Of a stretch of DNA of 64,000 nucleotides, positions 6,521 through 56,778 are shown piece by piece. The stretch covers positions 2,496,001-2,560,000 of the forward strand of contig CAVUAK010000001.1 in assembly GCA_963739455.1 (NCBI GenBank), given 5' to 3'. Below the pieces are notes generated by a model. It was not told where the DNA came from, made no database searches, and saw only the letters and a list, made by a program, of their open reading frames with translations. How positions within the stretch are numbered: position 1 is the first letter of the stretch; every line of letters begins with the position of its first letter. Source of the stretch: an uncultured Gemmatimonadales bacterium. Its GTDB lineage: Bacteria > Gemmatimonadota > Gemmatimonadetes > Gemmatimonadales > GWC2-71-9. A program made the position numbers and the translations under genes.

Positions 6521-6525
6521 CCCAT

Positions 6526-23512: not shown

Positions 23513-24331
23513 CTAAGAGTCCAGGTGGCGAAGTTGGTGTCCCACTATCAGGCCGAAGACGACTGTCATCAAGCCGTAGACCATGAGATCCGAACGTGCA
23601 GGCGCGTTGACCGCTCCTTTTGACAGGGCCTGTAGGCCTGCCATGACAAGAAGGCCGCCGGCAACGCTGAAGACTCCCGCCGCGTAGGGGCCGGCACGCC
23701 CCAGCTGATGGGTCGGGCGTCGGATAGCGGCGTAGGTGAGACCGCCACCGAATCCAATGAGAAATCCCATCGCGAGTAAGCGGCCAGCTGCAAAGAGGAG
23801 TGCCCCCAAGGAGTGACCTCTACCCCTTATGAGAAGCCCGAGCACGCGCAGCAAGGCGAAGAGCGTCATGCCGATGGCCCCGTACAGCGCCGATTGGAGC
23901 CAGCGAGGCACCCGCGACAGCACCTTGTGAAGGCTGACGGCAATTTGTGCTAGAGCAGGCAACGGGGGCGCCGGCATCACCCCAAGGTGCTCGACCGCTT
24001 TCAGCCGGGCCTGACATAGGGTACACGTCGGCATATGCGCTTCGAGAGCCGTGACCGCATGCTTCGCCTGCGTGGTCGACTTTGCTTGCTCCGCAGCTTC
24101 AAGCAGGGTGACGGCCTGCGTGCACTCTGGAAGCTGTAGTCGCTCCAGCAGGACGCGTCGTTCCTCGTGCGCGAGAACCCACAGCGCTTGTCGACTGACC
24201 GAGGCTGGCAGGCCGCTGGTAATCGTTTCCAGCGTGGAAATCTCATCGACGTGCCTGCCCAGCAGCTCGGCTAACCGTTCCGGGCTCGTGCCGATGGCCG
24301 TGCGGCGTTGCTTCAGCTCAAGGCCTGTCAG
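23513..24331 (-). CDS. putative XRE-like HTH + HxxxCxxC + multi-TM protein (old cassette gene)
   Basis: Frame of ORF 23513-24034 stays open to a CTG at 24331 preceded by AAGGAG; LKQRRTAIGTSPERLAELLG..., HMPTCTLCQ. Confidence 0.5.
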   Translation of the reverse strand: MTGLELKQRRTAIGTSPERLAELLGRHVDEISTLETITSGLPASVSRQALWVLAHEERRVLLERLQLPECTQAVTLLEAAEQAKSTTQAKHAVTALEAHMPTCTLCQARLKAVEHLGVMPAPPLPALAQIAVSLHKVLSRVPRWLQSALYGAIGMTLFALLRVLGLLIRGRGHSLGALLFAAGRLLAMGFLIGFGGGLTYAAIRRPTHQLGRAGPYAAGVFSVAGGLLVMAGLQALSKGAVNAPARSDLMVYGLMTVVFGLIVGHQLRHLDS

Positions 24332-24350
24332 GTCGGGACTCCTTCATGCG

Positions 24351-24378
24351 GTGTACGACGCATTGCACATGTGCTGGG
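24351..24378 (-). repeat. degenerate attC remnant (L'-R' half)
   Basis: gtacgacgcattgcacatgtgctg vs consensus gtataacgcgttgcacatgtgctg. Confidence 0.6.
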
Positions 24379-24611
24379 TCTGCGATCGTCACCAACTCGC
24401 AATGTCATGATGGGTGACCGGGCACCGGGCCCGCTGGTACCCCATTCAAGCACCTGCTTCACGGAGTCGACCGTGAAGGGCAGCGCGATCCAGGCTCCCG
24501 CCACGAACCTAGGTACCGGTTTCGGGTCACTAGCTCACTCAATTCAAGGTCTCAAAATGCGCACGGTCGGATTTTAGCAGCTCTATTCTCGTCGCCGATC
24601 CTGTGCCTGCG

Positions 24612-24739
24612 GCATAACGCGTGGCACATATGCTGCGGCCGCGGTCCGCGGCGCCAGCGACGCGACTGAACGAGCCCCTGGCACAGGCGGCGATCGCGCC
24701 GCAGATCCACCCGCGGCCGACAGCCACCATGTGTTATGC
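24612..24739 (-). repeat. attC site
   Basis: GCATAAC...GTTATGC; small deletion in the R''-L'' spacer. Confidence 0.88.
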
Positions 24740-24760
24740 AGCAGGTCGCGCTGCAGTGCG

Positions 24761-25372
24761 CTACTCTAGCAGGCGCCACATCAGACGATCCAGCCAGCCT
24801 GGTACCCGCGGCAGTGCTTCGTGGTCCTTACTGTAATCCTGCTCTACCGTCAAGAGACGCGCGCTAGCAGCCGAAGCGAGCTGACTTGCCTCCGGAAGCC
24901 GTGTGGCGAAGACGATCTCCGCCTCAAGGCAAGCTCGCTCGACGCTTAGCGCAGCGCCGGGATCGGTCCGGTATGAGATATCCGGACGTGAGGCGTGCAA
25001 GGCGTCGTGCACGAGCTGCTGGGCAATCCGGGCTGGCTCCGAACCTCGGAGGAACCTGATGTCCAGATCACACGAGCGCGAAACTCGACGGTAGCGGCCT
25101 CGCATCTCTCCGGCTAGCAGATGCACGACCACGTAGTCAGTGCTATCGCGCAGCTTTTGCCATTCCTCGGGAGCGTGGTCTCGGATGACCACGAAGGCGG
25201 ATGCGGTGCGCTCGAACAGTGCTTCGTCGGATGGCTCAACAATGAGGCCGATCCCATGCACAACAGGCGCTCGTGATCGGATCTGGCGCGCCACGACGCT
25301 ATCTGCGGCGGTCAGCGCGGACATTATCCCCGACAGCGCCTGACGCGTGAAGCCGCGCCCGATATTGGCCAC
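24761..25372 (-). CDS. cassette hypothetical protein
   Basis: Single ORF between attC sites. Confidence 0.6.
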   Translation of the reverse strand: MANIGRGFTRQALSGIMSALTAADSVVARQIRSRAPVVHGIGLIVEPSDEALFERTASAFVVIRDHAPEEWQKLRDSTDYVVVHLLAGEMRGRYRRVSRSCDLDIRFLRGSEPARIAQQLVHDALHASRPDISYRTDPGAALSVERACLEAEIVFATRLPEASQLASAASARLLTVEQDYSKDHEALPRVPGWLDRLMWRLLE

Positions 25373-25402
25373 AGATCTCCTACCGTTCAGGGGCTTGCTG
25401 CT

Positions 25403-25474
25403 GCATAACGCGTTGCACGTGTGCTGCGGCCGCAGGATTACCCGCGGCCTGCAGCCACTATGTGCTTGTTAGGC
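25403..25474 (-). repeat. short attC (72 bp, centre deleted)
   Basis: Both R/L arms kept; about 60 bp of the centre missing. Confidence 0.85.
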
Positions 25475-25491
25475 GACACTGGGATGAGGAG

Positions 25492-26256
25492 CTACGGCAA
25501 TGGCAGCGCGCCAAGCGACTCATACTGCGCCCACAGAGGCGTTTCTTCGAGCGGCCGACGCTCAAAGTTCTGCCCTCCCCGCCTCATATCTACCAATGCC
25601 CCGGTGGGCGCGACGAGCCACCAATCTTTCGAGCCATCCGGATCCGTGAGCTCATACAGCTTACCCTTACCGCGCGCAGACGCGGTAACCGTGACAAGGT
25701 CCCATTTTGCCGCAAACGGCCTGTAGATCAGGACCCGCCACGGCTGTGGCGCCCCGTTGAGTGACGCCAATACGGGCACCAGGAGATCCTCCATGCCGTA
25801 GTCGGCGACTCCCCACGGTTCTTTCGGAATGGGATATGCAGCGCGGGTTGTTCCCGTAATGCGGATAGAGTCGGCGGATGCTGTGATGACCACTTGGGTT
25901 TCCACGCTGTCGCCCGATGTCCAGAGCGCCTGCGCTTGGGTTGGGCGGCCGCCATCTAGGCGCACTGCCGAGGTGCCCAGGTAGGCTTCCCCGCGAACCA
26001 TTGCCGCCGACACTTGATTCTGGGACCGCTGTACGAGATGAAGCAGGATCGGACGCCCATCGTACCACGACACAAGGGTATCACCGGAGGCGAGCTGCCT
26101 GGACGCGTGAGCCGCGATAAAGGCCGCGAGTAGGTCGTGCGTTTGGTGAGCCGTGGGGGCCTGTGCCGCCGTGGGCCCGGGGAGCAATAGGCTGCCGGCA
26201 CCGACACAGGCGAGCACGCGGCAAATGATGAGTTGAAGCAAAAGCAGATTCCCCAT
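25492..26256 (-). CDS. cassette hypothetical exported protein
   Basis: Signal-peptide-like N-terminus; between attC sites. Confidence 0.6.
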   Translation of the reverse strand: MGNLLLLQLIICRVLACVGAGSLLLPGPTAAQAPTAHQTHDLLAAFIAAHASRQLASGDTLVSWYDGRPILLHLVQRSQNQVSAAMVRGEAYLGTSAVRLDGGRPTQAQALWTSGDSVETQVVITASADSIRITGTTRAAYPIPKEPWGVADYGMEDLLVPVLASLNGAPQPWRVLIYRPFAAKWDLVTVTASARGKGKLYELTDPDGSKDWWLVAPTGALVDMRRGGQNFERRPLEETPLWAQYESLGALPLP

Positions 26257-26265
26257 TGTGGTGCC

Positions 26266-26396
26266 GCCCAACGCGTTGCACATGTGCTGCGGCCGCGGTG
26301 GCGGCGCGAGCGCGGCGGCTGAACAGGCTCCTAGCACAGGCCGCGCTCGTGCCGCACGAACTACCAGCGGCCGGCGGCACCATGCGCGTGTTAGGT
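26266..26396 (-). repeat. attC site
   Basis: GCCCAAC...GTTAGGT, family consensus. Confidence 0.92.
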
Positions 26397-26444
26397 GGCT
26401 CCCGAACCCGTTTCGGGGTCGGTGCCCCTTACCCCCGGATCGTA

Positions 26445-26996
26445 TTACTGGTGCTCAGACCAGTGGCCGTCGCTGCGACGAACCCTAAGCACAGCCTGGG
26501 CGCGCGGGTCGTGCTCCAGTGCCCCGATGTTCCACCCGACTTGGACGGCGAATAGCTGTGTCCAGAGACGCGTGCCGGCGTGTGAGAGCAGGTGAGATTC
26601 CTCGTTAACCTTCAGCAATATCATCGACGTGGCCGTTAGGCCAAGCGTGTTGCTCAACTCGTCGAAGATCACAGTGGCGTTACTGAGAATCTTCTCTGCG
26701 CCCCGCCGACGGTCACCACTTAGCTCATGCACGAGCGTGAGCGCGATGATGCCGCGGGTGGTGGTTGGAGACAGGAGCGCCGGCGATGGAAGCCTTGCTA
26801 GGAACGCCTCAACCTCCGCTGGAGCCACCCTGCGCAGCGACGGTGTGAATAGGTAGGGATCGACGCCAATGGCATGCACACCGGATGCGGGGGGCGGCCC
26901 AAGGGGCGCAACCTGCTCCTCAAAGCGAATGAGTGCGAACGCTATGCGCGCCGCCTCCAGTCTGAGATCATCAGGCATCGATGCAATCGCCGTCAT
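26445..26996 (-). CDS. cassette hypothetical protein
   Basis: GGAGGA RBS then ATG; cassette ends GTTAGGTGGCT / AGCCACCTAAC are complementary. Confidence 0.6.
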   Translation of the reverse strand: MTAIASMPDDLRLEAARIAFALIRFEEQVAPLGPPPASGVHAIGVDPYLFTPSLRRVAPAEVEAFLARLPSPALLSPTTTRGIIALTLVHELSGDRRRGAEKILSNATVIFDELSNTLGLTATSMILLKVNEESHLLSHAGTRLWTQLFAVQVGWNIGALEHDPRAQAVLRVRRSDGHWSEHQ

Positions 26997-27017
26997 ATCG
27001 TGTCCTCCGCTGTAGCC

Positions 27018-27148
27018 ACCTAACGCGTTGCACATGCGCTGCGGCCGCGGTGGCGGCGCGAGCGCGGCGGCTCAACAGGCTCCCAGCACTGGCCGCGCTC
27101 GTGCCGCATCAAGGCCCGCGGCCGACGGCCACCATGTGCTTGTTAGGC
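27018..27148 (-). repeat. attC site
   Basis: ACCTAAC...GTTAGGC. Confidence 0.92.
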
Positions 27149-27160
27149 GGCAACGGACAC

Positions 27161-27724
27161 TTAGTTGCCCGCAACGACCCCACGCTCATTGAATTGCACC
27201 TTGCCGACCCGCCGAGAGCCCAGATCAATCTCGGCACCGAAGTACGACGCACCGCCATCACAAGTCCGTACTGCGCGATCAGCGAAGCTCTGTAGCAGGC
27301 CCCCGAGGCCGTGCGTACTGTGACCGCCGGCGGGTGCGAGCTGCTGGCGTAGCGTGTCCTGCTGCGCCGGCGTCAGATAGGCGCCATTTGCATACAGGAC
27401 GCGCTTGCCATTGATAACAAGGCCGCCGTACTGTCGTGCATAGTTGCCTACGAGTAGCGACATACCTGGCTCCTTTGGCGCGCGTGGTAACGCCGCCGCG
27501 AGTGCCTGCGCCAACAGCGAATCAGCCAGCGCCATCTCTGCCGTGCTCGGCCGCCAAAAGGACTCGGCCTTCAAAGGACCGACTCTCGTGCACGGGTCTA
27601 GGAGACCTGGCATTGCGGAGTCGGGAAGCGCGACGGCCAAGGCGGGATCAAAGACCTGTGATCCCTGGGTATGGGCTAGGGCGGCCACTCCCAATGCTAT
27701 CGTGACGACATGGGCTAGTTGCAA
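27161..27724 (-). CDS. cassette hypothetical exported protein
   Basis: Signal peptide; YARQYGG and CDGGASYFG motifs. Confidence 0.65.
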   Translation of the reverse strand: MQLAHVVTIALGVAALAHTQGSQVFDPALAVALPDSAMPGLLDPCTRVGPLKAESFWRPSTAEMALADSLLAQALAAALPRAPKEPGMSLLVGNYARQYGGLVINGKRVLYANGAYLTPAQQDTLRQQLAPAGGHSTHGLGGLLQSFADRAVRTCDGGASYFGAEIDLGSRRVGKVQFNERGVVAGN

Positions 27725-27744
27725 AGCATGCGCTCCTCATTGGC

Positions 27745-27875
27745 GCCTAACGCGTTGCACATGTGCTGCGGCCGCGGTCGCGGCGCGAGCGCGGCGACTC
27801 AACAGGCTCTCAGCACTGGCCGCGCTCGTGCCGCACCAATACCCGCGGCTGACAGCCACCATGTGCTTGTTAGGC
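27745..27875 (-). repeat. attC site (matches 58450-58580 from the crossover on)
   Basis: GCCTAAC...GTTAGGC. Confidence 0.93.
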
Positions 27876-28124
27876 CGCCGTCCCAGCCAAGCGGTTGCGG
27901 TGGTACCGCCAGGCCATGACCAGTACTGATAGCGTCAGCACGATGCTGACGGCGTCGACCAGTCGACTATCGCCGAGTCGACTCACCTGTGCGGTGGCAA
28001 CTGCGGCGGCCAAAAGCAGAAGCACCCGCGCGCGGTCCTTCAGGCCGCGCCGATAATAGATGCCGGCGACCACCGCAAACGTGATCGGAACGATTGCGAA
28101 GGCGGCGATACCGATTAGCTGCAT
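27870..28124 (-). CDS. cassette 3-TM small membrane protein (copy 2)
   Basis: Identical 84-aa ORF at 58575-58829. Confidence 0.75.
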   Translation of the reverse strand: MQLIGIAAFAIVPITFAVVAGIYYRRGLKDRARVLLLLAAAVATAQVSRLGDSRLVDAVSIVLTLSVLVMAWRYHRNRLAGTAA

Positions 28125-28146
28125 GGCGCCTCCAAGGTCGTATGCG

Positions 28147-28171
28147 GCCTAACTCTGACATCTGCTGCGGG
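28147..28171 (-). other. second attI-like site
   Basis: Minus strand CGCAGCAGATGTCAGAG/TTAGGC vs array 1 attI CGCAGTACATGTGATAG/TTAGGC; no attC arm upstream. Confidence 0.7.
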
Positions 28172-28352
28172 GGCCAGCTTGCCGCCATCGCATTGACCTG
28201 AGTAAGCCTAGCCGTCGGTACGTCAGTGGGCAGGATGGGACGATCGTCCCATGCCTCCCCCCCCCGTTCCCTGCGCTTGCGACGCTGGTGCCCAGACGGT
28301 ACTTTATGATGCAAAGTCGTTTGCGACGGTCGTGAAGCTTCTGGAGGGTCTC

Positions 28353-28937
28353 ATGACTGACGACAAGTCCCGCCGGCTGCGGGCCACTTTCTGGAACGCC
28401 GCGGCATGGAGTGCCGCCTGGGCCATCGCCGGCGGCGCAATCGTCACCCTCGCCGCCCTGTTCAATCCCGATCCCGCCATCGAGTCCCTCGCTGAGCGCG
28501 TCGGCATGGCGCTCTTTGCCGGGGTCACCTTTGGCTTCAGGTTCGCCATTGCGGGCGCTGTCATTGGAACCCTCTTCTCGGCCATCATCCGCTGGGGCTA
28601 CCGCGGCAAGCGCCTGGCTGACATCAGTCCCGTGAGGTTCGGGATCCTTGGCGCCGTCGTCGGCGGGGTAGGAGTGCCGCTGTTCCTGCAGCTCATGAAC
28701 GTGCTGTCCGGCGACGGGCCGATCGCTTGGGGCCTGGTCCTGGATGACGGTCCCTGGGCCGCCGTCTTTGGCGCTGCCGTTGCCGCTGGTTCCATTCTGG
28801 TCGCGCGCCGTGCCACCGCACTGTCGCACGAGTCACCCGCGCAGCAGCTCGAACGTGGAGACGACTACGGCGACCAGCTAGGTGACGATGCGGTCAGGAG
28901 CACGAAGGTGAAAACCCACCGCACGGATAATACTTGA
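28353..28937 (+). CDS. hypothetical membrane protein
   Basis: GGAGG RBS, 4 TM segments. Confidence 0.6.
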   Translation: MTDDKSRRLRATFWNAAAWSAAWAIAGGAIVTLAALFNPDPAIESLAERVGMALFAGVTFGFRFAIAGAVIGTLFSAIIRWGYRGKRLADISPVRFGILGAVVGGVGVPLFLQLMNVLSGDGPIAWGLVLDDGPWAAVFGAAVAAGSILVARRATALSHESPAQQLERGDDYGDQLGDDAVRSTKVKTHRTDNT

Positions 28938-46869: not shown

Positions 46870-47002
46870 GCATAACGCGTTGCACATGTGCTGCGGCCGC
46901 GGTCGCGGCGCGAGCGCGGCGGCTCAACAAGCTGCTGGCACGGGCCGCGCTCGTGCCGCACAAGCCGCCCGCGGCCGAGAGCTCACCATGTGCGTGTTAT
47001 GC
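46870..47002 (-). repeat. attC site
   Basis: GCATAAC...GTTATGC. Confidence 0.92.
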
Positions 47003-47296
47003 CTCACGTCGTCGGATCCAGCGGCGCGGATGGCGCCGGGAATGCGCCACCGCCACGAGGCGGACCCGATCTGAGTCCACGTGGAAGTAGATGCCGAACG
47101 GGTAGCTCGGAAGCAGGGCGCGCCGGAGTGTGTCATGGACGCGGACAATGAACTCCGGTCGCTCGCGAATCGCCGTGAGCGTGACTTCAACCGTATCAAG
47201 AAAACGCGCCGCAGCTTGGGGAGAGCGTGCGGCGTACCAGGCGTGTGCTTCGTCGATGTCCGCCTCGGCGATGGGGCGGATCACGAGGCGCCGCAC
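46997..47296 (-). CDS. cassette: RelE/ParE toxin
   Basis: AEADIDEAHAWY, RRALL..YPFGIYF, AHSRRHP. Confidence 0.85.
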   Translation of the reverse strand: MRRLVIRPIAEADIDEAHAWYAARSPQAAARFLDTVEVTLTAIRERPEFIVRVHDTLRRALLPSYPFGIYFHVDSDRVRLVAVAHSRRHPRRWIRRREA

Positions 47297-47517
47297 TAGC
47301 GCCTGCGCTGCTCGATGCGCGCCCGGACGTCTTCCCAAGGTGACCCGGCATCCGGATCCCGCTCCATTTCGGCAAGTCGACGATCAAGCTCCGCGGCTAG
47401 TGCAGGCGAGATCGGAGCAGCCGCGCCTTCGGAAGCGAGGCTGTCCCAAAGCTCCTCGAGCAACGCGAGCCGCTCGGATACACTCAGGCGGGACAGGTCC
47501 ACGGGCGAAGAGGCCAT
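47296..47517 (-). CDS. cassette: addiction module antitoxin (TIGR02574-like)
   Basis: LSVSERLALLEELWDSL, ELDRR, WEDVR. Confidence 0.85.
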   Translation of the reverse strand: MASSPVDLSRLSVSERLALLEELWDSLASEGAAAPISPALAAELDRRLAEMERDPDAGSPWEDVRARIEQRRR

Positions 47518-47563
47518 GGCTGAATCCTAGGATCTCAAAGGTGAACGGGCAACTGTCCGTGAG

Positions 47564-47604
47564 GCATAACGCGTTGCCGACAGCTCACCATGTGCTTGTT
47601 ATGC
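47564..47604 (-). repeat. deleted attC (41 bp, L' and centre missing)
   Basis: gcataacgcgttg joined to ccgacagctcaccatgtgcttgttatgc. Confidence 0.85.
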
Positions 47605-47898
47605 CTCACTCCGACGGATCCAGCGGCGTGGATGCCGACGGCCGTGGACCACGCCGAGAATGCTGATGACCTTCGGAAAGATCCGGTAGTAGACGCCGTA
47701 CGGAAAGTGCATCACGGCAGCCCGACGCAGCTCACCCCGGACGAGCGGCCACGCCTCAGGATTCTCCTCAATGCGGACCATGGTCGCGTCGAGCTCATCA
47801 AGAAAACGCGCGGCCACATCCGGTGACCGCGCTGCATACCACTCGAAGGCTTGTGCGAGCTCAGCGCTCGCCACCGACCGAACCGCCAGGCGACGCAC
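47599..47898 (-). CDS. cassette: RelE/ParE toxin
   Basis: AFEWY, RRAAVMHFPYGVYY, VHGRRHP. Confidence 0.85.
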   Translation of the reverse strand: MRRLAVRSVASAELAQAFEWYAARSPDVAARFLDELDATMVRIEENPEAWPLVRGELRRAAVMHFPYGVYYRIFPKVISILGVVHGRRHPRRWIRRSEA

Positions 47899-48114
47899 CT
47901 ACAGGCGGCGGCGCAACTCGTCCCGAACTTCAGCCCAAGAGCGGCCAGCGTCCGGGTCCTGCTCCGCTTCCGCCGAACGCCGGTCAAGCTCCGCCGCAAC
48001 GTCGGGCGTCAGTTCGTGGGTCCGCGTCGGGTCCAAGCTATCCCAGAGCTCGCCAATAAGCTCCAGGCGCTGATCCGGCGTCAGATGCGAAAAGTCCACG
48101 AGTGGTGCCGACAT
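47899..48114 (-). CDS. cassette: addiction module antitoxin (TIGR02574-like)
   Basis: QRLELIGELWDSL, ELDRR, WAEVR. Confidence 0.85.
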   Translation of the reverse strand: MSAPLVDFSHLTPDQRLELIGELWDSLDPTRTHELTPDVAAELDRRSAEAEQDPDAGRSWAEVRDELRRRL

Positions 48115-48165
48115 GTTTGCAATCTGCTAAAGGAGCCCTGCGCAGGCAAGGAAGACCGTGGTGAG

Positions 48166-48298
48166 GCATAACGCGTTGCACATGTGCTTCGGCCGCGGTA
48201 CGCGGCGCCAGCGACGCGACTGACCAGGCTCCTAGGACAGGCGGCGCTGGCGCCGCATCAACGCCCGCGGCCGACAGCTCACCATGTGCGTGTTATAC
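48166..48298 (-). repeat. attC site
   Basis: GCATAAC...GTTATAC. Confidence 0.92.
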
Positions 48299-48308
48299 AG
48301 CACGGACG

Positions 48309-48522
48309 CTAGAGGTCGCTTGGGGTCAGGCCGGTATGCATTGGCGATGCGCGCCAGCATGCGCGGGCCAATCTCATCAGTGTCGTGAAAGGCGAATACG
48401 AAATCGGGCCAGTCTGGGTGTGCGAGGGTCCGGTGGGACCCTGATTCGCGCTTGATGCTCCAGCCGAGCCGCACCAACGCGGCGAAGACGCGGCGCGCCT
48501 TGGCGGCGCCCCACGTGCTCAT
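48309..48522 (-). CDS. hicA: cassette: HicA toxin (1-nt insertion near 48341)
   Basis: GWSIKRESGSH; removing one base restores AKHTGLTPSDL*. Confidence 0.8.
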
Positions 48523-48725
48523 GCGGCCAGGAAGGACACCGTGAGGAGTTCGGGCACGGCTTCGCCGGCTTCCATGCGTTCAGCCAAGGCGTGCAGCGCC
48601 AGGGCCTGAACCTTGGCCACAGCATCCGTACGGGTCACGCCGTAAGTCATAACCCCCGGCATCTCGGGCACTTCGGCGATCCAGCGACCGTCGGCTTCCT
48701 GGTCGATTTCGATATTGAACGTCAT
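48519..48725 (-). CDS. hicB: cassette: HicB antitoxin
   Basis: EADGRWIAEVPEMPGVMTYG. Confidence 0.85.
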   Translation of the reverse strand: MTFNIEIDQEADGRWIAEVPEMPGVMTYGVTRTDAVAKVQALALHALAERMEAGEAVPELLTVSFLAA

Positions 48726-48783
48726 GGGGCCCTCTGGGAGAGTGGCAGACCCTAGGAATCTAGCCCCGCCACCCCGTCGTGCT

Positions 48784-48915
48784 GTATAACGCGTTGCACA
48801 TGCGCTGCGGCCGCGGTGGCGGCGCGAGCGCGGCGGCTCAACAGGCTCTCAGCACAGGCCGCGCTCGTGCCGCACCAAGACCCGCGGCCGACAGCTCACC
48901 ATGTGCTTGTTATGC
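48784..48915 (-). repeat. attC site
   Basis: GTATAAC...GTTATGC. Confidence 0.92.
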
Positions 48916-48930
48916 TGCAGGGCCGCGGGA

Positions 48931-49266
48931 CTAGCCCAGCAACTGTATAAGGCGTGCGCGAACGTCGTCGCGGAATAAGGCCTCGACTGCTACAATGCGG
49001 CCTCCGGCGACATCGACATTGAGCATGCCGGAGGCTACTTCGTCCAACGCAAGGGTCTCGTGATCCGGGCCCCACGCACCATCCGATCGCGCTTTCGCGT
49101 AGAAAGTCGCGCAAAAGTCGTCCCCGCACCTGCAGCGATCTACGATTCGAAGAGACGAGAGCTGATCCGCAAGCTCGGGGCGATTCTCTGCGCGAAGGAG
49201 CCTATCCAACTCGCCTGAGAGCTGAGGCAGTGCTTCCGAAAGCAGGAGCGGTGAGCTCGATTTCAT
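48931..49266 (-). CDS. cassette hypothetical protein (CxCxxxxC)
   Basis: DRCRCGDDFCATFY. Confidence 0.7.
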   Translation of the reverse strand: MKSSSPLLLSEALPQLSGELDRLLRAENRPELADQLSSLRIVDRCRCGDDFCATFYAKARSDGAWGPDHETLALDEVASGMLNVDVAGGRIVAVEALFRDDVRARLIQLLG

Positions 49267-49282
49267 TGAGATCCTAGTTGCA

Positions 49283-49414
49283 GCATAACGCGTTGCCCAT
49301 GTGCTGCGGCCGCGGTGGCGGCGCGAGCGCGGCGGCTCAATAGGCTTCTAGCACAGGCCGCGCTCGTGCCGCACCAGAATCCGCGGCCGACAGCTCACCA
49401 TGTGCGTGTTATGC
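49283..49414 (-). repeat. attC site
   Basis: GCATAAC...GTTATGC. Confidence 0.92.
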
Positions 49415-49951
49415 AGCAACAGTTTCAGGTGTGTCGAGTAGCTCAACCTGACCCACATGCCTCCTTACGAGCGCTCGCAACGGGGCAAGATCGACATCCG
49501 GAACCATTCGCCGCGGTATGAAATACGCGCACTTTGCAGTATAGAAGAACAAGAAGAACTCTTCGGTCTCAACGACGCGCTCGATGGCCCGCCATTCGAA
49601 CTTCGCTGACGTCCCATCATCGCGGCATTCTAAGCCTTGCGCAGTTACTTCGCGCGTGATCTGGCCACGTAACCGATGATTCTGCTTCATGGCCCGTTTG
49701 ATCGACCAGCGCGTGATCCACGGAATGCCGAAGTACGTGAACAGCGGAAAGAAGAACCAAGGCCAGATGAGAACACGATCCCATCGGACATGCCCTTGCA
49801 GGAGGCCGCCGAGGAACAAGGAGAAGAGCGTCAAGCCAAGCGGAAACCCGAACGCAAGCAGGAGCGTGAGCTTATTGCCTCCGCAAACGCGCTGAACGGC
49901 CCGGTGTGCCCGGAGGTACTCAGCTTCGTCAAACGGCGCCTGAAATTGCAT
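49409..49951 (-). CDS. cassette: YcxB family membrane protein
   Basis: 2 TM then W..IERVVET.E.F.F......Y.IPRR; stop inside R''. Confidence 0.8.
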   Translation of the reverse strand: MQFQAPFDEAEYLRAHRAVQRVCGGNKLTLLLAFGFPLGLTLFSLFLGGLLQGHVRWDRVLIWPWFFFPLFTYFGIPWITRWSIKRAMKQNHRLRGQITREVTAQGLECRDDGTSAKFEWRAIERVVETEEFFLFFYTAKCAYFIPRRMVPDVDLAPLRALVRRHVGQVELLDTPETVAA

Positions 49952-49983
49952 TTACTCCGCTTTCGAGAATGTTTGGCATTGCT

Positions 49984-50115
49984 GCATAACGCGTTGCACA
50001 TGTGCTGCGGCCGCGGTGGCGGCGCGAGCGCGGCGACTGAACAGGCTCTTGGCACGGGCCGCGCTCGTGCCGCATCAACAACCCGCGGCCGACAGCCACC
50101 ATGTGCGTGTTATGC
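49984..50115 (-). repeat. attC site
   Basis: GCATAAC...GTTATGC. Confidence 0.92.
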
Positions 50116-50161
50116 GTCAGGCCCGCACCAGCATAGATTCCACTGGTCCTAAGGAGGCCAT

Positions 50162-50383
50162 ATGCAAATTCAGTTCACGGCAGTCTTCCGCAAAGTCCCG
50201 GAAGGGTATGTCGGCTTCGTTGAGGAGCTGCCCGGCGCCAATACGCAGGGAGCTACCCTGGATGAGGCACGCGTGAACCTGCAGGAAGCCGTCGAGCTGG
50301 TGCTCGAAGCGAACCGCGCCCTGGCCGAGCTGGAGCTTGGCACGGCGGATGTGATTCGCGAGCCGCTCCGCCTCACGGCGTGA
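50162..50383 (+). CDS. hicB: cassette (inverted ORFs): HicB antitoxin
   Basis: GYVGFVEELPGANTQGATLDEA; TAAGGAGG RBS. Confidence 0.88.
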   Translation: MQIQFTAVFRKVPEGYVGFVEELPGANTQGATLDEARVNLQEAVELVLEANRALAELELGTADVIREPLRLTA

Positions 50384-50565
50384 AGCGCGTTGATCTCGTG
50401 CGCCACCTGCTGGCGCACGGCTGTGAACTTCTTCGAGAAGGTGGCAACCACTCGGTTTTCTTGAACCGGGCAGCGCGTAGAGTGACCACCGTACCCCGCC
50501 ATCGCGAGATCAATGAATTGCTCGCGCGCAAGATCTGCAAGGATCTCGACGTACCCCCGTCCTGA
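50380..50565 (+). CDS. hicA: cassette (inverted ORFs): HicA toxin
   Basis: GC.LLREGGNH...VPRHREI...ICK. Confidence 0.88.
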   Translation: MKRVDLVRHLLAHGCELLREGGNHSVFLNRAARRVTTVPRHREINELLARKICKDLDVPPS

Positions 50566-50566
50566 C

Positions 50567-50698
50567 GCATAACGCGTTGCACATGTGCTGCGGCCGCGGT
50601 GCGCGGCGCCGGCGACGCGACTGAACGAGCTCCTAGCACGGGTGGCGCCGGCGCCGCAGAATCACCCGCGGCCGAAAGCCACCATGTGCTTGTTAGGC
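50567..50698 (-). repeat. attC site
   Basis: GCATAAC...GTTAGGC. Confidence 0.92.
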
Positions 50699-50733
50699 CG
50701 CAACTGCACAAAGAGCTCGCAGGTCCGCAGGCG

Positions 50734-51294
50734 CTATGGCTGATCTATTGGAGCCTGGACAAGTACCCAGTCCTGAGGACCGTCCTTCACTAGACGCCAG
50801 CCATCGAAGCCACCTGGCCGCAAGAGCATTGCTTGTTCTTCCATGAACATTGTGCGGAAGTTGCTCGCCCACGCAATGTCCCGAATGGCGCTTGAGCGGG
50901 AGGCAAGTGCTGCGGTGACGCCGATGCCAATAGCTATGAGGAAGAACATTGCGACCGAGCCCACGCTAATGTCGCTGCCATCACGCCAGATCGTGGAGCC
51001 AACGACGTGCCAGCCAACAACTAGTACGGCGGCCCAAGCCGCAATGTTCTTGAGGCCGTACGTCCACATGAAATGCCAGAAGCGTGTTGGTTGGTAGCGC
51101 TGCATCTGCTCAGCCCGCCGCATGCGGCGCGCCTGCCAACGATAGGAGCGCACAGCGCGCCCGTCGTCACCGATGGACCCGCCGTCCTCGGCATGCTGCG
51201 CGAGGTCGTGGGCAAGTTCTGAGAAGCTTGGCGGGCCATTGAGATAGACCCGACCAAAGAAGCCAAGCTGCTGTGCCGGAGCGCTGCGCATCAT
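50734..51294 (-). CDS. cassette hypothetical 2-TM protein
   Basis: Single ORF between attC sites. Confidence 0.55.
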   Translation of the reverse strand: MMRSAPAQQLGFFGRVYLNGPPSFSELAHDLAQHAEDGGSIGDDGRAVRSYRWQARRMRRAEQMQRYQPTRFWHFMWTYGLKNIAAWAAVLVVGWHVVGSTIWRDGSDISVGSVAMFFLIAIGIGVTAALASRSSAIRDIAWASNFRTMFMEEQAMLLRPGGFDGWRLVKDGPQDWVLVQAPIDQP

Positions 51295-51376
51295 CTATGA
51301 AAGGCAATTCCCGTCATGGAAGACTGCAGCAGGGCTGCGCCTATCTCCGTCTTGTCTTCGCAAGCGGTTGCCTGCG

Positions 51377-51508
51377 GCCTAACGCGTTGCACATGTGCTG
51401 CCGCCGCGGTCGCGGCGCGAGCGCGGCGGCTCAACAGGCTCCTAGCACGGGCCGCGCTCGTGCCGCATCAATACCCGCGGCCGACAGCTCACCATGTGCT
51501 TGTTAGGC
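51377..51508 (-). repeat. attC site
   Basis: GCCTAAC...GTTAGGC. Confidence 0.92.
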
Positions 51509-51742
51509 TGCGCCGGACCGGACGGGGCGCCAGTGCATGGCCAGCTTCCGCCCCTGCGCGGCGCAATCCCGCAGGTACAGGTTAATGAGCGTCTGGTACG
51601 GGATCTCGGTGTCCGTGGCCAAGGCCTTGAAGTAGGCAATGGTGGCCTCATCGAGCCGGATCGTCACCGACCGCTTGAGGCGCTTGGCGTAGACGTTCCG
51701 CCCGCCCTTCGAGAAATCGTATTCCTTCCTCATGATTCCCAC
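51503..51742 (-). CDS. cassette: BrnA-like (CopG/RHH) antitoxin
   Basis: MRKEYDFS, VTIRLD...YFK...IPYQTLINLYL. Confidence 0.85.
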   Translation of the reverse strand: MGIMRKEYDFSKGGRNVYAKRLKRSVTIRLDEATIAYFKALATDTEIPYQTLINLYLRDCAAQGRKLAMHWRPVRSGAA

Positions 51743-52038
51743 CGTGCGCCGTATTGCGTGAGCTCTGAACGGGTTGCTTTACGTGCCGAGATGAGCCGAA
51801 TCGTGTCGTCGCGCTCCCGGTAGACATGGACCACGACCAGGAGCCGGGTCAGTGCACTCAGGCCGAGGAGGATGAACCGCTCCTCGCGAGCCGAGTGATC
51901 TGGATCCTCGATCAGGATCGCCGCCTCGTTGAACCGCTGCGCCATCCACTCGCCGTACTGCGCGGAGTCGCGTGCGATGTACTCGCGAATGGCTTGAACG
52001 TCGTCGAGCGCCTGAGGGGTCCACTCAACCGGGGTCAT
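51730..52038 (-). CDS. chimeric toxin: ParE N-terminus fused in frame to BrnT C-terminus
   Basis: WTPQALDDVQAIREYIARDS (ParE) + DPDHS..EERFILLG....LLVVVH...IRLISARKAT (BrnT). Confidence 0.75.
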   Translation of the reverse strand: MTPVEWTPQALDDVQAIREYIARDSAQYGEWMAQRFNEAAILIEDPDHSAREERFILLGLSALTRLLVVVHVYRERDDTIRLISARKATRSELTQYGARWES

Positions 52039-52218
52039 CCCAGGAGCCGGCGCTTCGCTTCCTCATGGGGAATCAGTCTGGCCGGCGTCGGCCTGGGCCA
52101 AGCCGCGCTCGACTTTGGCAAGGAATAGGAGGCGCTCGATGGCATCCTCGACGGTCGCGTCCGGCGGCAGCTGCCGCACGGCATCGAGGATCTTGTCAGG
52201 GGTGGTCGAAGCTGCCAT
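52035..52218 (-). CDS. ParD-like antitoxin (1-nt insertion near 52077)
   Basis: QLPPDATVEDAIERLLFLAKVERGLAQADAG, then LIPHEEAKRRLLG* in the shifted frame; ATGA overlap with the toxin. Confidence 0.7.
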
Positions 52219-52284
52219 GAACCCTCTCTTGGGGCAGGTTCCAGAATCTATGAGACGCCGCGTGGATCACAAATGCCGGCCGCC

Positions 52285-52327
52285 GCAGATAGAGCGGGGC
52301 CTCGTCAGCTGCATGCGCTAGTTAAGC
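52285..52327 (-). repeat. foreign-family attC half-site (R''-L'' only)
   Basis: Minus strand GCTTAAC TAGCG CATGCAGCTGACG at the ORF stop; no matching L'/R' seen. Confidence 0.6.
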
Positions 52328-52876
52328 CGCAGGGCGGTGGAACCCAGGCGCGCGCGAGCCTGCAAGGCGTTTTAGCACCCAGGCCGCGGTCAGCCAGAGG
52401 ACGACCGCTGCTCCAGCACTGACGAGGGTGATGCGCGCGTCCAAGTCGATGATGCCCAAGCCGACGAGCCCCAGTCCCATGAGGGCAGCGGCAGTGGCGT
52501 AGTATGCCGGTGCCAGTAGCCCACGCGCGAGTGGCACGAAGTGGGCTCCGACGATGAGGGCAACCGCCGACACTGTAAGGTCTCGGTGTCCGGTGCTCGG
52601 GAGCAGCACGCCAGCAACGAAGAAGAGTGCGAGGCCCTCCAACGCGCTCGCCCACGCGACTAGCTTGTCTCGTCGCGCGTGTTCGTTTGCGTCGACGGTA
52701 GCCTCCGGCGTCGCTTGCTGGCGGTGCACCAGGCGCCAGGCGACACCAGCGAGCGCGACTGCGGCAAGAAGCGGCAGGGGGTACACCAGCGCTGGGCTGT
52801 GGTCAGCGATCTGCAGGCCGACGATCCACCAGATGGTGGCGAAGAATCCTAGGATCAACGCGCCAGTGATGCTCAC
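52322..52876 (-). CDS. cassette membrane protein
   Basis: 5-6 TM; ALIVGAHFVPLAR; stop inside R''. Confidence 0.7.
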   Translation of the reverse strand: MSITGALILGFFATIWWIVGLQIADHSPALVYPLPLLAAVALAGVAWRLVHRQQATPEATVDANEHARRDKLVAWASALEGLALFFVAGVLLPSTGHRDLTVSAVALIVGAHFVPLARGLLAPAYYATAAALMGLGLVGLGIIDLDARITLVSAGAAVVLWLTAAWVLKRLAGSRAPGFHRPAA

Positions 52877-52912
52877 GCAATCTCCGACCGTGCAAAGTGA
52901 AGCATGGTTGCG

Positions 52913-53045
52913 GCCTAACGCGTTGCACATGTGCTGCGGCCGCGGTGCGCGGCGCCAGTGACGCGACTGAAAGAGCACCTAGCACAGGCGGCGCTGGCGC
53001 CGCACCAAGGTCCGCGGCCGACAGCTCACCATGTGCTTGTTATGT
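52913..53045 (-). repeat. attC site
   Basis: GCCTAAC...GTTATGT. Confidence 0.92.
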
Positions 53046-53049
53046 GGCG

Positions 53050-53319
53050 CTAAAGTCGCCTCAACAGCTGATCGTACTCCGCATGCGAGCCGATCCAAAA
53101 CCACACCAGGTCCTCGCCCTCACGCACGGCGAGCGCCCGATACCCGAGGCCGACGCGCGCCGAGTAGATCGGACGCTGCGCGTGGACCTGCTTGAACCGC
53201 AAGGCGGGATGACTGGGATCGCGGGCGAATGTTTGATAGGCGAGGCGCGCCTGAGCCCGGACGTGAATAGGCAACGCCGCCAGCGCCTCGCGGAACCGAC
53301 GGGTGGTGCGCGAGGTCAA
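53050..53319 (-). CDS. cassette: RelE/ParE-like toxin
   Basis: DPSHPALRFK, YSARVGLGYRALA, WFWIGSHAEYD. Confidence 0.8.
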   Translation of the reverse strand: MTSRTTRRFREALAALPIHVRAQARLAYQTFARDPSHPALRFKQVHAQRPIYSARVGLGYRALAVREGEDLVWFWIGSHAEYDQLLRRL

Positions 53320-53534
53320 AGCCGGTCGGGATCGAGCGGCTGGGTCTGTCCGCCACGCAATTCTCCGAGGGCTTCATCCGCGAGCTTTGCCAAGGCATCC
53401 GGACGACGACGGAAACTGTCATCCCAGAGCGGCTCGGTGGCGACCTCATCGAGGATCGCGGCCGCGAGCGCATCCTGGGCCTCGGCAGGGAGTTTGGCCG
53501 CTTCGGCGAATGCCTTCTCGAGCAGTTTGGTCAT
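53316..53534 (-). CDS. cassette: antitoxin
   Basis: MTKLLEKAFAEAAKLP..QDALA, WDDSF; overlaps the toxin. Confidence 0.8.
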   Translation of the reverse strand: MTKLLEKAFAEAAKLPAEAQDALAAAILDEVATEPLWDDSFRRRPDALAKLADEALGELRGGQTQPLDPDRL

Positions 53535-53592
53535 GGTAGCCTCCTAGCCCAAATCTAGCCCAGCCCCCACCCGCGACGGAAACCCGATTGCC

Positions 53593-53724
53593 ACATAACG
53601 CGTTGCACATGTGCTGCGGCCGCGGTGCGCGGCGCCAGCGACGCGACTCAACAGGCTGTCAGCACTGGCGGCGCTGGCGCCGCAGAACCGCCCGCGGCCG
53701 CCAGCCACCATGTGCGTGTTATAC
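53593..53724 (-). repeat. attC site
   Basis: ACATAAC...GTTATAC. Confidence 0.92.
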
Positions 53725-53730
53725 CGCACA

Positions 53731-54192
53731 CTAGTCGCAGCCAGCTTGCACCGGAGTGCTACCCAGCACCGTTAGGCTGCCTGGAGCACCGAGCGCCACA
53801 CGCCACCGGTCGATGCCCACAGGATCACAATGCGTGTTGACCGCCTCGATGGTGAGGATCCACCGCTTGTCTTCCCGCACGAGAACCGGGTTGACGAGAT
53901 GGACGCCTCCACCGGTGGTCTCCGTGAGCGGCGCGGTTGCTAGAAGGCGCGACGGTGTATCGGACTCCGTTGGCTCCGCCACCCATTCCACACGGGCCTC
54001 CGAAATAAGGTGCTCAAAGCCACCGGTTTCGATGATGACTCGAAACGAGCCATGCGCTGAATCGTCAACCTGCCAGTAGCCGCCCGAGATGACTGTCTCG
54101 ACATCTAGCGGCACCTGGCCGTCCGTTTGAGCGGCAGCGGTCGATGCGACACACAGCACAGAGGCGACGCTCAACGGAATCCTGCCACGCAA
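53731..54192 (-). CDS. cassette exported hypothetical protein
   Basis: GGAGG RBS, signal peptide AAA-Q. Confidence 0.65.
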   Translation of the reverse strand: MRGRIPLSVASVLCVASTAAAQTDGQVPLDVETVISGGYWQVDDSAHGSFRVIIETGGFEHLISEARVEWVAEPTESDTPSRLLATAPLTETTGGGVHLVNPVLVREDKRWILTIEAVNTHCDPVGIDRWRVALGAPGSLTVLGSTPVQAGCD

Positions 54193-54211
54193 ATGGACCT
54201 CCGTCTGTGCG

Positions 54212-54342
54212 GTATAACGCGTTGCACATGTGCTGCGGCCGCGGTGGCGGCGCGAGCGCGGCGACTGAACAGGCTTCTAGCACAGGCCGCGCTCGTGCCG
54301 CAAGAGTACCCGCGGCCGCCAGCCACCATGTGCTTGTTATGC
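54212..54342 (-). repeat. attC site
   Basis: GTATAAC...GTTATGC. Confidence 0.92.
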
Positions 54343-54359
54343 CGCCCCCATGACCGATC

Positions 54360-54848
54360 CTAGTATATGGCGCCATCGAGGGACGCGCTCTGCGTCCAGC
54401 CCTCCGGGCCACGCACAAACAAATCGAGGGAACTCTGACCGCACTTCGGGCCACAGAGCACCGAGACTTCAATCAGGGCGGAGTCCTGGGCGCCATTGAA
54501 GGCGGCGCGAGACAAGTAGATGCGATTCTGCCCTGCCGCCTTCGGTAGTGCAGCCTCGGTGAGACGCACCTGCTTGCCGGAAACAGCGAATTCAACGGGG
54601 AAACGGGCTCGCTGCTGATTGGAAGCCCAGAAGCTGCCGAGCAGCTCGGCGCTCACGCCATTGTTGCTATGATCGCGACACCATGTCACCGAGTCCGCGC
54701 CGAGGGCGGGGAGACGAGTGAGAGCCGCGACTTCAAGTGACTCCGCGGGCTGCGCGCTGAGCACGTCGCGGGCAAGCGTGAGCTCGGCCGTATCGGGCGC
54801 CGCAGTGCAGGCGGTAACGAACCAGACTAGGACCCATGGTCGCTTCAT
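54360..54848 (-). CDS. cassette lipoprotein
   Basis: Lipobox VTAC; C-terminal CGPKCG. Confidence 0.65.
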   Translation of the reverse strand: MKRPWVLVWFVTACTAAPDTAELTLARDVLSAQPAESLEVAALTRLPALGADSVTWCRDHSNNGVSAELLGSFWASNQQRARFPVEFAVSGKQVRLTEAALPKAAGQNRIYLSRAAFNGAQDSALIEVSVLCGPKCGQSSLDLFVRGPEGWTQSASLDGAIY

Positions 54849-54864
54849 TCGATCTCACTTGGCG

Positions 54865-54994
54865 GCATAACGCGTTGCACATGTGTTGCGGCCGCGGTGG
54901 CGGCGCCAGCGACGCGGCTGAAAGAGCTGGTAGCACGGGCGGCGCTGGCGCCGCAAAACCACCCGCGGCCGACAACACCATGTGCGTGTTATGT
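54865..54994 (-). repeat. attC site
   Basis: GCATAAC...GTTATGT. Confidence 0.92.
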
Positions 54995-55320
54995 TCGCGG
55001 CGCGATCGACCGTGAGATAGCTACGGAACCTGACCGCTCATGCTGCTTGGCTCGCATTTCTGATAGTGACGCTGGAGATGCCAGGAACGGCACCAACGCG
55101 CCGCTACCTACGTCCCGATGCTTGAGCTCTTGCGAGGAACCAGGCAACCAATCATGCCAGCTACCAATGGTGCCAGTGCTCGAGCTCGTTGATGCCTGCG
55201 TTGTCGTGATGGTTGATGGTACTGTGCCGGACGGGACTCCCGCCACTAGAGCCAGACACATAGGACGTTTGTCCTAGGGGTCAGACGTTCAACAGCTGTT
55301 CGCCTTCACGGCCGGCCGCG
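54995..55320 (-). other. cassette without a convincing gene (weak 90-aa ORF 54989-55261)
   Basis: Bounded by attC sites; contains palindromes and direct repeats. Confidence 0.55.
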
Positions 55321-55450
55321 ACATAACGCGTTGCACATGTGCTGCGGCCGCGGTGGCGGCGCGAGCGCGGCGACTCAACAGGCTCTTAGCACAGGCCGCG
55401 CTCGTGCCGCACGAGTACCCGCGGCCGGCAGCACCATGTGCGTGTTATAC
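55321..55450 (-). repeat. attC site
   Basis: ACATAAC...GTTATAC. Confidence 0.92.
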
Positions 55451-55996
55451 GGCACGCCCATCGATCTCCGAGGGCAGAGCCGCGCTGGTACCATCAACGG
55501 CGGACAGTTCCCGATCGATACGCGCGACCAGTCGCTGACGATCGTATTGACTCAACCCGCTCTGCTCCAGCTCCGCGCGCAGTCGACGCAGGTACGGTAC
55601 CCGGCGCCGTTTGTCCTGCACGGTGATGCTGCGGAGTTCAGGGGCGACTTCCTCGCCTGGCTTTCCCCACAGGCCGAAGCGATCAAAGAGCATCCGATCA
55701 ATAGTCGCTGCACTTGTAGTCCTGATGCCCGGACTAACGTTACACTTGCGGCAAGCGGGGAGCGGCGCCACGTACTCCCAGAAGTTCTGAGTAAACCGCG
55801 TCCCGCAGAGCCGGCAGCGCATCCAGCTGGCGTACGAGAGAAGCCATGAACCGCCGAATATCACTCCCCAGCGTGCCACCCCAGCGAGGAATGCACCTTC
55901 CACACCGGGTGCGAGCTGTCGCACTCCTAGGCCACTCGTCACGCCCACGACGAGTGTGAGGCCATAGGTGAGGGCAGAGCGCGCACGGATCGTCAA
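55445..55996 (-). CDS. cassette 2-TM protein with a CxxC pair
   Basis: CRLC...CRKC; stop inside R''. Confidence 0.55.
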   Translation of the reverse strand: MTIRARSALTYGLTLVVGVTSGLGVRQLAPGVEGAFLAGVARWGVIFGGSWLLSYASWMRCRLCGTRFTQNFWEYVAPLPACRKCNVSPGIRTTSAATIDRMLFDRFGLWGKPGEEVAPELRSITVQDKRRRVPYLRRLRAELEQSGLSQYDRQRLVARIDRELSAVDGTSAALPSEIDGRAV

Positions 55997-56030
55997 AGGA
56001 CGCGTAACATCACTCCGGTCTCGTTGTGCC

Positions 56031-56161
56031 GAATAACGCGTTGCACATGTGCTGCGGTCGCGGTGGCGGCGCGAGCGCGGCGGCTCAACAGGCTTCTAGC
56101 ACAGGCCGCGCTCGTGCCGCATCAGTACCCGCGGCCGACAGCCACCATGTGCGTGTTATAC
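56031..56161 (-). repeat. attC site
   Basis: GAATAAC...GTTATAC. Confidence 0.9.
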
Positions 56162-56761
56162 CGCAGCGGCCATCGACGCGAGATGCTGCACTTCTGCGCC
56201 TTCGATAAGCTCTGGTCGCAGCGCGGATACCAGACGCCGCGGGACGTAGGTTGCCGCCCAGAAGGCGGGCAGAGCGACAGGCAAGACACGCAGCGCTTCT
56301 GGCCAGCGCCAAGCGCTCGTCACTTCCGACACCCCTGCGAATGATGCCACTACTGCCAGGGTACCGGGCAAAGCGAGCGCCAATGCCAAGCCCGCCAGCC
56401 ATGTGCGGCTGGGGCGAACCGGCGCGAAGCGTGGCGCGTACTTAACGTAGAGGCAGTAGGCCAGGATGTAGCCTGGAGCTAGTAGCAGGATGACAAAGCC
56501 CGCGAAGTATGCCGAGGTCAGCAGGCATGCGCCGAGAAATCTCAGCTCGAGCAATCCCTGGCCCTGGAGTAGCACTCCGACAGTGCACGCCAGGACGGTC
56601 CACACCAGAAGGCCGGTCAGCGCGGAAAGCGTAGACCACACCAGTGCCGCTCGGATTCGGGGCTCGTGCACCAGGGCCGCCGCGCCCGGTGCCAGACTTC
56701 TAAGCAGCAGCGCGCTCGCTCCGAGTGTCGACGTTACATAGACCCAGAACCAAGCGCCCAT
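56156..56761 (-). CDS. cassette membrane protein
   Basis: TAAGGAG RBS, 5 TM; stop inside R''. Confidence 0.65.
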   Translation of the reverse strand: MGAWFWVYVTSTLGASALLLRSLAPGAAALVHEPRIRAALVWSTLSALTGLLVWTVLACTVGVLLQGQGLLELRFLGACLLTSAYFAGFVILLLAPGYILAYCLYVKYAPRFAPVRPSRTWLAGLALALALPGTLAVVASFAGVSEVTSAWRWPEALRVLPVALPAFWAATYVPRRLVSALRPELIEGAEVQHLASMAAAV

Positions 56762-56778
56762 CGATTCTCCTTACTGCG

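Follow-up and report, generated by a model that had tools for sequence, protein, structure and literature searches.

The window analysed here, the whole 64,000-bp stretch G000:C1:2496001-2560000, comes from a Gemmatimonadales assembly (G000; 3.6 Mb, 4 contigs, 84% complete) and contains two arrays of integron gene cassettes. Array 1 lies next to a broken integron integrase gene (intI). Array 2, the subject of this work, begins at position 28153 with a head, attI2, that resembles an integron attachment site (attI). The attC sites of the cassettes were called with our own profile scan and a hairpin scan, and the significance of each fold was judged against 200 shuffles per site. Outward from its head, array 2 is laid out as follows (ORF, open reading frame).

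28146..28169, minus strand: attI2, a simple site made of an L box, a spacer and an R box; crossover between G 28153 and T 28152
27751..28152, minus strand: cassette 1 ('X'), 402 bp; ORF 27870-28124 (84 aa, hydrophobic); attC 27745-27875 (131 bp)
27024..27750, minus strand: cassette 2, 727 bp; ORF 27161-27724; attC 27018-27148 (131 bp)
26272..27023, minus strand: cassette 3, 752 bp; ORF 26445 to ~26996; attC 26266-26396 (131 bp), right core GTTGGGC
25409..26271, minus strand: cassette 4, 863 bp; ORF 25492-26256; attC 25403-25474 (72 bp, internal deletion)
24618..25408, minus strand: cassette 5, 791 bp; ORF 24761-25372; attC 24612-24739 (128 bp, left arm 3 bp short)
23513..24617, minus strand: eroded tail, with an attC right-arm remnant at 24353-24377 (profile score 14.8) and ORF 23513-24034

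An initial annotation of this DNA had described five attC sites of a ~131-bp family; all five are present, and the size is right for four of them, one being only 72 bp long. Each forms a bottom-strand hairpin (z -3.2 to -6.7, with 0/200 shuffles as good in every case), and the start core of each cassette pairs with its own R'' box, perfectly in four of five. Outward from attI2 the attC profile scores run 135, 126, 113, 55, 100 and 15 (rho -0.94, n=6; the 55 of the fourth site is the sum of two half hits), and this fall suggests that older cassettes drift outward and erode. The corresponding correlation with distance in array 1 is rho -0.53 (n=18). No match was found for the six array 2 ORFs in Pfam, PADLOC or NCBIfam, nor for the 17 array 1 ORFs in PADLOC. 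With five hairpin-forming attC sites and no neighbouring intI (the nearest piece is ~30.9 kb off, close to the 30 kb annotated), array 2 is by definition an attC-site cluster that has no integrase (CALIN).

The head itself is not attC-like, as had been annotated: its fold is no better than that of shuffled sequence (z 0.07, 101/200 shuffles as good), and the hairpin scan found no attC-like hairpin, and so no eroded attC arm at the head, between 27875 and 46870. The R box GTTAGGC at 28153 is complementary to the R'' box GCCTAAC of the first cassette at 27875. On re-reading, the head of array 2, CGCAGCAGATGTCAGAG/TT (28151-28169), and that of array 1, CGCAGTACATGTGATAG/TT (58856-58874), are indeed 15/19 identical with equal spacing. 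The head pattern of the initial annotation, searched with up to 3 mismatches, has two matches in the window, which are the two heads (chance mean 0.11; 1/100 shuffles reached two), the pattern having been derived from the same two heads that it then matched. An attI weight matrix was trained only on six integrase-adjacent sites of other genomes, so that G000 was held out, and was scored against 61,984 GTT sites. The head of array 1 (attI1) ranked 1st, attI2 4th, and attI3, the head of a third cluster outside the window, 12th. A tblastn search with the intact IntI of a relative found no IntI remnant near 28.2 kb, in agreement with the initial annotation; its matches were confined to two Xer-like genes and the 59.0-59.9 kb intI. 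Array 2 thus withstands two of the three refutation checks of the initial annotation.

Upstream of attI2 lie a palindrome, a possible promoter element and a divergent gene; the palindrome recurs in the array 1 platform.

28235..28252: palindrome ATGGGACGATCGTCCCAT, 18 bp, 82 bp upstream of the attI2 crossover
59017..59034: copy of the palindrome at the 3' end of intI, in the array 1 platform
28205..28210, minus strand: possible -10-like hexamer TAGGCT of a candidate cassette promoter, identified by eye only
28353..28937, plus strand: divergent membrane-protein gene that flanks the platform and lies outside it, starting ~200 bp from attI2

In the relatives of G000 (codes G001-G010 denote genus relatives and L codes fetched loci, of which L090 and L100 are metagenome contigs), the palindrome is located between intI and attI in G006, G008, G010 and L100, and it is also found upstream of solo heads, which have no intI. 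Among the 20 best matrix sites in G000, a palindrome 34-200 bp upstream occurs only at the three heads and at none of the 17 unoccupied sites; the background is 138 of 61,974 GTT sites. The palindrome is likely to be a protein-binding site. Its consensus is ATRGGnCGAWCGnCCYAT, and copies are found in the window at 28235-28252, 55260-55277 and 59017-59034 and at 31 places elsewhere, mostly intergenic in the contexts inspected. An identity as a LexA box was considered and is unsupported: none of the 34 copies is close to lexA, and a single copy is found ~650 bp upstream of recA with another gene in between. Nor does it appear to be part of the divergent gene's promoter, since it is absent in 4/4 homologues. 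In other genera no palindrome was detected downstream of intI at 30 family intI loci (up to 3 mismatches; several loci have short flanks). TANNNT hexamers occur 23-28 bp past the palindrome in several platforms, and a promoter consensus scan of the region upstream of attI2 returned no promoters.

The flanks of the platforms were compared across 12 genus genomes, G000 counted in. Homologues of the divergent gene in 4 of the 11 other genomes keep their own upstream region, and palindrome and attI are absent in all four; they are likewise absent at 5/5 orthologues of the permease gene beside attI3. An empty orthologous site was not found among these four divergent-gene and five permease flanks, which include no close strain.

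The first cassette of array 2 links it to array 1, which has the following features.

58851..58874, minus strand: attI1, head of array 1; crossover G 58858
46870..58857, minus strand: array 1, with 17 full attC sites and one partial left arm near 47566-47604
58456..58857, minus strand: other copy of cassette X, the first cassette of array 1, identical to 27751..28152
59031..59894, minus strand: broken intI in the orientation of the cassettes; TIGR02249 in two pieces, aligned to three intact relatives

Cassette X is the only cassette body common to the two arrays. Its copies belong to an unbroken 406-bp identity, 27748-28153 with 58453-58858, which comprises the 402-bp cassette and core bases at both crossovers. 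Identity that runs from one crossover point to the other implies that attI2 recombined with an attC by means of IntI, whatever the direction of transfer or the origin of X. Copy-and-paste outcomes of integron recombination have been documented (PMC8024014).

The array 1 intI has lost its 5' part and carries two frameshifts and one in-frame TAG, and its truncated end abuts the stop codon of a DUF188 gene. It is 76-78% identical to its intact relatives, and G006 is 76% identical to G008 and L100; as the divergence is no greater than among the intact genes, the damage looks recent. No other IntI was found in the G000 assembly, where the recombinases detected are XerC/D-like genes, the broken intI and one phage-type integrase. 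Neither array is thus a complete integron with an adjacent intact intI, array 2 having none and that of array 1 being broken. With its sole intI broken, the integrase that fed the G000 arrays would be either past or external. The annotated idea of one integrase feeding two arrays does not hold as worded, because the only intI is broken, no other was found and the platforms number three.

The third platform emerged from the whole-genome attC scan as a cluster at C1:2.4045-2.4057 Mb, with the head CGCAACTCATGAGTTAG/TT right after an ABC-permease gene. The locus (G000:C1:2404463-2406700, L126), 91 kb before the window, has a palindrome and an attI-like head with two recognisable attC sites and collapsed ones behind, and no integrase. 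The core of its first attC is mutated, so this array looks older. An orthologue of attI3 was found in the metagenome contig L090 by attC search alone, independently of the head pattern. It shares the ABC permease (87% at the 3' end), 25/30 head bases and a degenerate palindrome; it has no intI and no cassette body in common with G000.

Other relatives have solo platforms too. G009 carries two of them 2 kb apart, 123/133 identical and with different cassettes at each, and no intI was found in this genome, which is 64% complete. The solo platform of G010 is 86.6% identical over 201 bp to the intI-linked platform of the same genome and retains only the last codons of intI. Like L090, these two cases do not depend on the head pattern. 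The search of the whole genome and relatives for attI-like heads that the initial annotation had proposed was made with the pattern GCARNWSAWKWNNNAGTTR. Eleven of its 13 matches in the 12 genomes are cassette heads, a count that is largely circular because the pattern was built from ten of the heads. Four of the 11 heads stand beside intI, the broken one counted, and seven are solo, in G000 (2), G001, G003, G009 (2) and G010, so that solo attI-like heads occur in 5/12 genomes. Beyond the genus, the palindrome-plus-attI pattern had 0 matches in metagenome contigs and four loci in genome contigs, all of them G009 and G010 sites already known; a stricter form occurs in 2/401 family genomes, both of this genus. 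As searched, the motif pair is genus-specific. The attC motif had 0 matches in viral contigs.

Two further loci were seen among the relatives. At L020:6335-6360 in G001 an attI-like core lies a few bases past a stop codon, with no palindrome, and the next cassette is of a different attC family. At L027:7200-7510 (G008 C34) a heavily deleted intI remnant in three short pieces precedes a cassette.

The orientation of these integrons bears on how a platform could outlive its integrase. In G000, G006, G008, G010 and the metagenome locus L100, intI is co-oriented with the cassettes and attI lies behind its 3' end; the G000 integron is a reverse (inverted-integrase) integron. Because palindrome and attI are downstream of intI, loss of intI would spare both the promoter region and attI. 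Across the genus the gene is found full-length beside a DUF4112 gene, 5'-truncated in G000, reduced to its last ~25 bp in G010, and absent at attI2, attI3 and in G009, a series that may trace the steps of its loss. It adjoins the DUF4112 gene in G003, G006, G008 and L100. The DUF4112 gene of G000 is 1.6 Mb from array 1 with no intI after it; its locus (G000:C1:927200-934000) contains only a series of small genes in one orientation. No attC or attI was found in the stretches fetched of the DUF188 locus of G003, G006, G008 and G009. As intI has moved off DUF4112 and the DUF188 locus of relatives is without an integron, platform 1 itself appears to have relocated without the start of intI. An inversion was rejected as the cause of this move, as the genes downstream of the G003 integron are still beside DUF4112 in G000. 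IntI-mediated excision of a platform from a GTT inside intI is unsupported, the G010 junction being without GTT.

Taking its action as an attI platform and as a secondary site together, attI2 very probably receives cassettes. The head at 28153 is probably a genuine integron docking platform without an integrase gene, loaded by an IntI encoded elsewhere. The annotated second attI platform is upheld in this respect by the held-out rank of attI2, the upstream palindrome and the identity of X between crossovers. In the mechanism we propose, the attI2 platform would consist of the upstream palindrome, the predicted promoter and the attI core, within ~110 bp, and loss or trimming of intI would leave it working. 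By established integron chemistry, an IntI acting in trans would act at G/TT of the double-stranded attI and recombine it with the folded bottom strand of the attC that a circular cassette carries. Each insertion would rebuild attI and push older cassettes outward, where their attC sites would erode, and array 2 was likely loaded cassette by cassette. Replicative copy-and-paste recombination may have copied cassette X from one of attI1 and attI2 to the other, or have brought it into both. The enzyme at work could have come from the resident intI while that gene was still whole, or could be an intact IntI that is absent from the 84%-complete assembly or was passing through the cell. As a tentative and rather doubtful extension, the palindrome-promoter-attI module (100-150 bp) could itself be a minimal integron, copied, moved and selected without intI in this genus; several such modules would offer one cell separate regulated expression slots for cassettes and would still be loaded by incoming integrases after the death of the resident intI.

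Several observations weigh against reading attI2 as a docking platform. The matrix result is strong and not decisive, since the core motif alone could arise by chance. Two unoccupied GTT sites score above attI2 and nine above attI3, and the six training sites were chosen by eye, one of them (L067) having no attC in the 1.3 kb downstream. The palindrome is not integron-specific, with 34 genome copies at up to 2 mismatches where shuffles predict 3-8; contig 1 holds 24 of the copies, 10 within its last 0.2 Mb, and in G009 the palindrome also follows the DUF188 gene. Outside the palindrome and the attI motifs the platforms barely align (mean column identity 53%). Among the relatives, no attI2 orthologue was found in another genome, two of the 13 GCARNWSAWKWNNNAGTTR matches head no cassette, the solo head of G003 scores weakly (242 sites as good) and that of G001 has no palindrome. 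About ten other integrase-less attC loci have no attI-like head (among them G008 C34, G009 C6, G007, G001 C5, G010 C7, L088, L095, L098 and L124), most of these being without a recognisable cassette start. Four lesions in intI beside zero differences between the X copies are a poor fit with a resident enzyme that made the last copy; unless several of the lesions are sequencing errors, they point to an IntI that came from outside or was not assembled. Conserved genes of G000 carry several frameshifts, which suggests long-read errors. No reads confirm the assembly at the array 2 locus; the one public read run listed contains 5% of the words and only short pieces from relatives, and as none of its reads spans either array head it is neutral evidence.

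The most serious competing explanation, which we consider unlikely, makes attI2 a secondary hotspot of the attG type that arose by chance in a promoter region, with attI-like function and no attI descent. IntI would have chosen it as one of the closest attI mimics of the chromosome, and selection would have kept the insertions on account of the promoter upstream. Such hotspots are used at near-attI frequency (Loot et al., bioRxiv 10.1101/2022.09.11.507474), chance sites score in the same range as attI2 and attI3, the loose head pattern gives 0-3 control matches per genome, and copies of the palindrome occur throughout the genome with an excess in this region. Chance is harder to reconcile with a palindrome at all three heads and none of the 17 unoccupied top-20 sites, or with orthologous flanks that have no platform in relatives. 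The G010 solo platform derives from an intI-linked one and that of G009 has been duplicated, and the attG sites of Loot et al. differ from attI in sequence and structure, whereas the G000 heads match the left half of attI. It is improbable that an 18.6-kb insertion split one long array and left array 2 as its tail, or that array 2 is a rearranged piece, in either case with an inert head and an X duplicate produced by assembly, polishing or gene conversion. An attC arm would be expected at the head in that case and none is there, the identity of X begins and ends at crossover cores, and the same architecture recurs at attI3, L090, G009 and G010. Zero differences in 406 bp are unexpected where intI has decayed, frameshifts are numerous in the assembly and the junction is covered by no reads, all of which would suit an artefact; the X copies, however, differ in their flanks on both sides, so that a collapse cannot have created them and a mis-join could only have swapped tails. 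The stretch from ~16.5 to 59.9 kb (43 kb) is variable, and genes within it are found beside or inside integrons of relatives, as a split array would have it.

Least probable is that attI2 is what erosion left of an attC right arm, with its spacer shortened by 3 bp and the left arm and gene deleted. It does share 12/13 bases (CCGCAGCA-ATGT) with an attC right arm, a likeness that is expected of the L box if one enzyme binds both attI and attC. There is no left arm and no hairpin, the spacing is that of attI1 and of the integrase-adjacent sites of relatives, and the upstream palindrome belongs to no attC. With attI1 included in the matrix, true attC right ends score -19 to -24, against +14.8 for attI2.

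The docking platform proposed here has precedents. The initial annotation started from the premise that arrays without an integrase have no recognised attI. To this there is a published exception, the Shewanella prophage M16-3, in which an integrase-less array is headed by its own attI (PMC9892861). As described in the available passages of that paper, the two systems are alike in having such an array in the same replicon as an integron; in M16-3 the same attI sequence stands at both heads of a prophage locus with an intact intI, whereas G000 has a chromosomal locus, three diverged platforms, a broken only intI and the reversed orientation. Unlike M16-3, G000 offers a shared first cassette and an attI3 orthologue with other cargo, which point to loading in trans. 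As all of its parts are known and one such array is in print, array 2 extends a known system. Secondary-site insertion and loss of intI have been proposed as origins of CALINs (Cury et al. 2016, PMC4889954); in the parts of that study available to us, attI could not be searched for in most lineages and CALINs are discussed mainly as cassette donors. In contrast, array 2 has retained a head that resembles attI, and there are signs that it receives cassettes. In the attG sites and single attC sites lacking an integrase (SALINs) of Loot et al. (bioRxiv 10.1101/2022.09.11.507474), IntI likewise acts on a double-stranded site away from intI, but attG as outlined there needs only GWT and flanking motifs, and the G000 heads match the left half of the lineage's attI and share a palindrome. 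The reverse integrons of Treponema (Wu et al. 2013, PMC3607928) have the inverted integrase orientation seen in G000; that paper assumes one attI per integron, and its available passages report loss of intI with attC kept and mention no solo attI. In the delta-attI cassettes of class 1 and 2 integrons, according to the portions of the report at hand, short attI pieces away from the intI-proximal position are recombined by IntI1, and the truncated attI replaces attC right after the cassette gene (PMC12901181). In contrast, attI2 follows the promoter region of a divergent gene and keeps a ~110-bp platform; the G001 site, right after a stop codon and without a palindrome, resembles the delta-attI type. 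Conserved CALIN loci are also on record in Xanthomonas (bioRxiv 10.1101/2025.06.18.660453) and attI downstream of intI in Archaea (PMC9668308), and Gemmatimonadota are listed as integron-bearing (PMC8618304). Our literature search, whose coverage left out most subscription journals, turned up neither a description of multiple solo attI platforms in this phylum nor an experiment on whether such platforms are loaded.

The origin of CALINs, and whether they are dead or alive, was left open in the passages seen of Cury et al. 2016, largely because attI is unrecognisable in most lineages. In this genus attI can be defined from relatives, and with three natural sites, unoccupied decoys and intact IntI genes the choice between relic and live receiver is directly testable. 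If the platforms are what they appear to be, integron counts based on intI would miss some of the sites of active capture, and integrons in reverse orientation would tend to leave working solo platforms behind. If the module is in addition a minimal integron, many CALINs would be live receivers and not relics.

Several minor observations concern the surroundings of the arrays. The tail of array 1 contains two diverged direct repeats, 45769-45848/48394-48473 (90%) and 46974-47050/47576-47652 (83%), perhaps remnants of duplicated cassettes. Just past it a gene for rifampin ADP-ribosyltransferase (Arr) at 45344-46111 on the minus strand, above the NCBIfam cut-off, may be a former cassette. Genes at 34267-34977 (minus strand), 17038-17539 and 39443-40324 have no attC here and are cassettes or integron neighbours in relatives, their counterparts being the first cassette of the G009 array, part of the interior of the G006 array and, next to the truncated intI of G003, an ArsR-type/AHSA1 pair. 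The region from 16.5 to 46.8 kb appears to be a burial ground of domesticated cassettes. Short intergenic repeats of 7 bp in tandem (CGCCTAA-like) lie at 6513-6581, 8484-8552 and 63012-63066; after the permease, at attI3 as well as in L090, there are similar repeats of GGACGTGA. A frameshifted Ser/Thr kinase gene with PD40 repeats occupies 35786-38609 on the minus strand and has dozens of paralogues in each relative searched.

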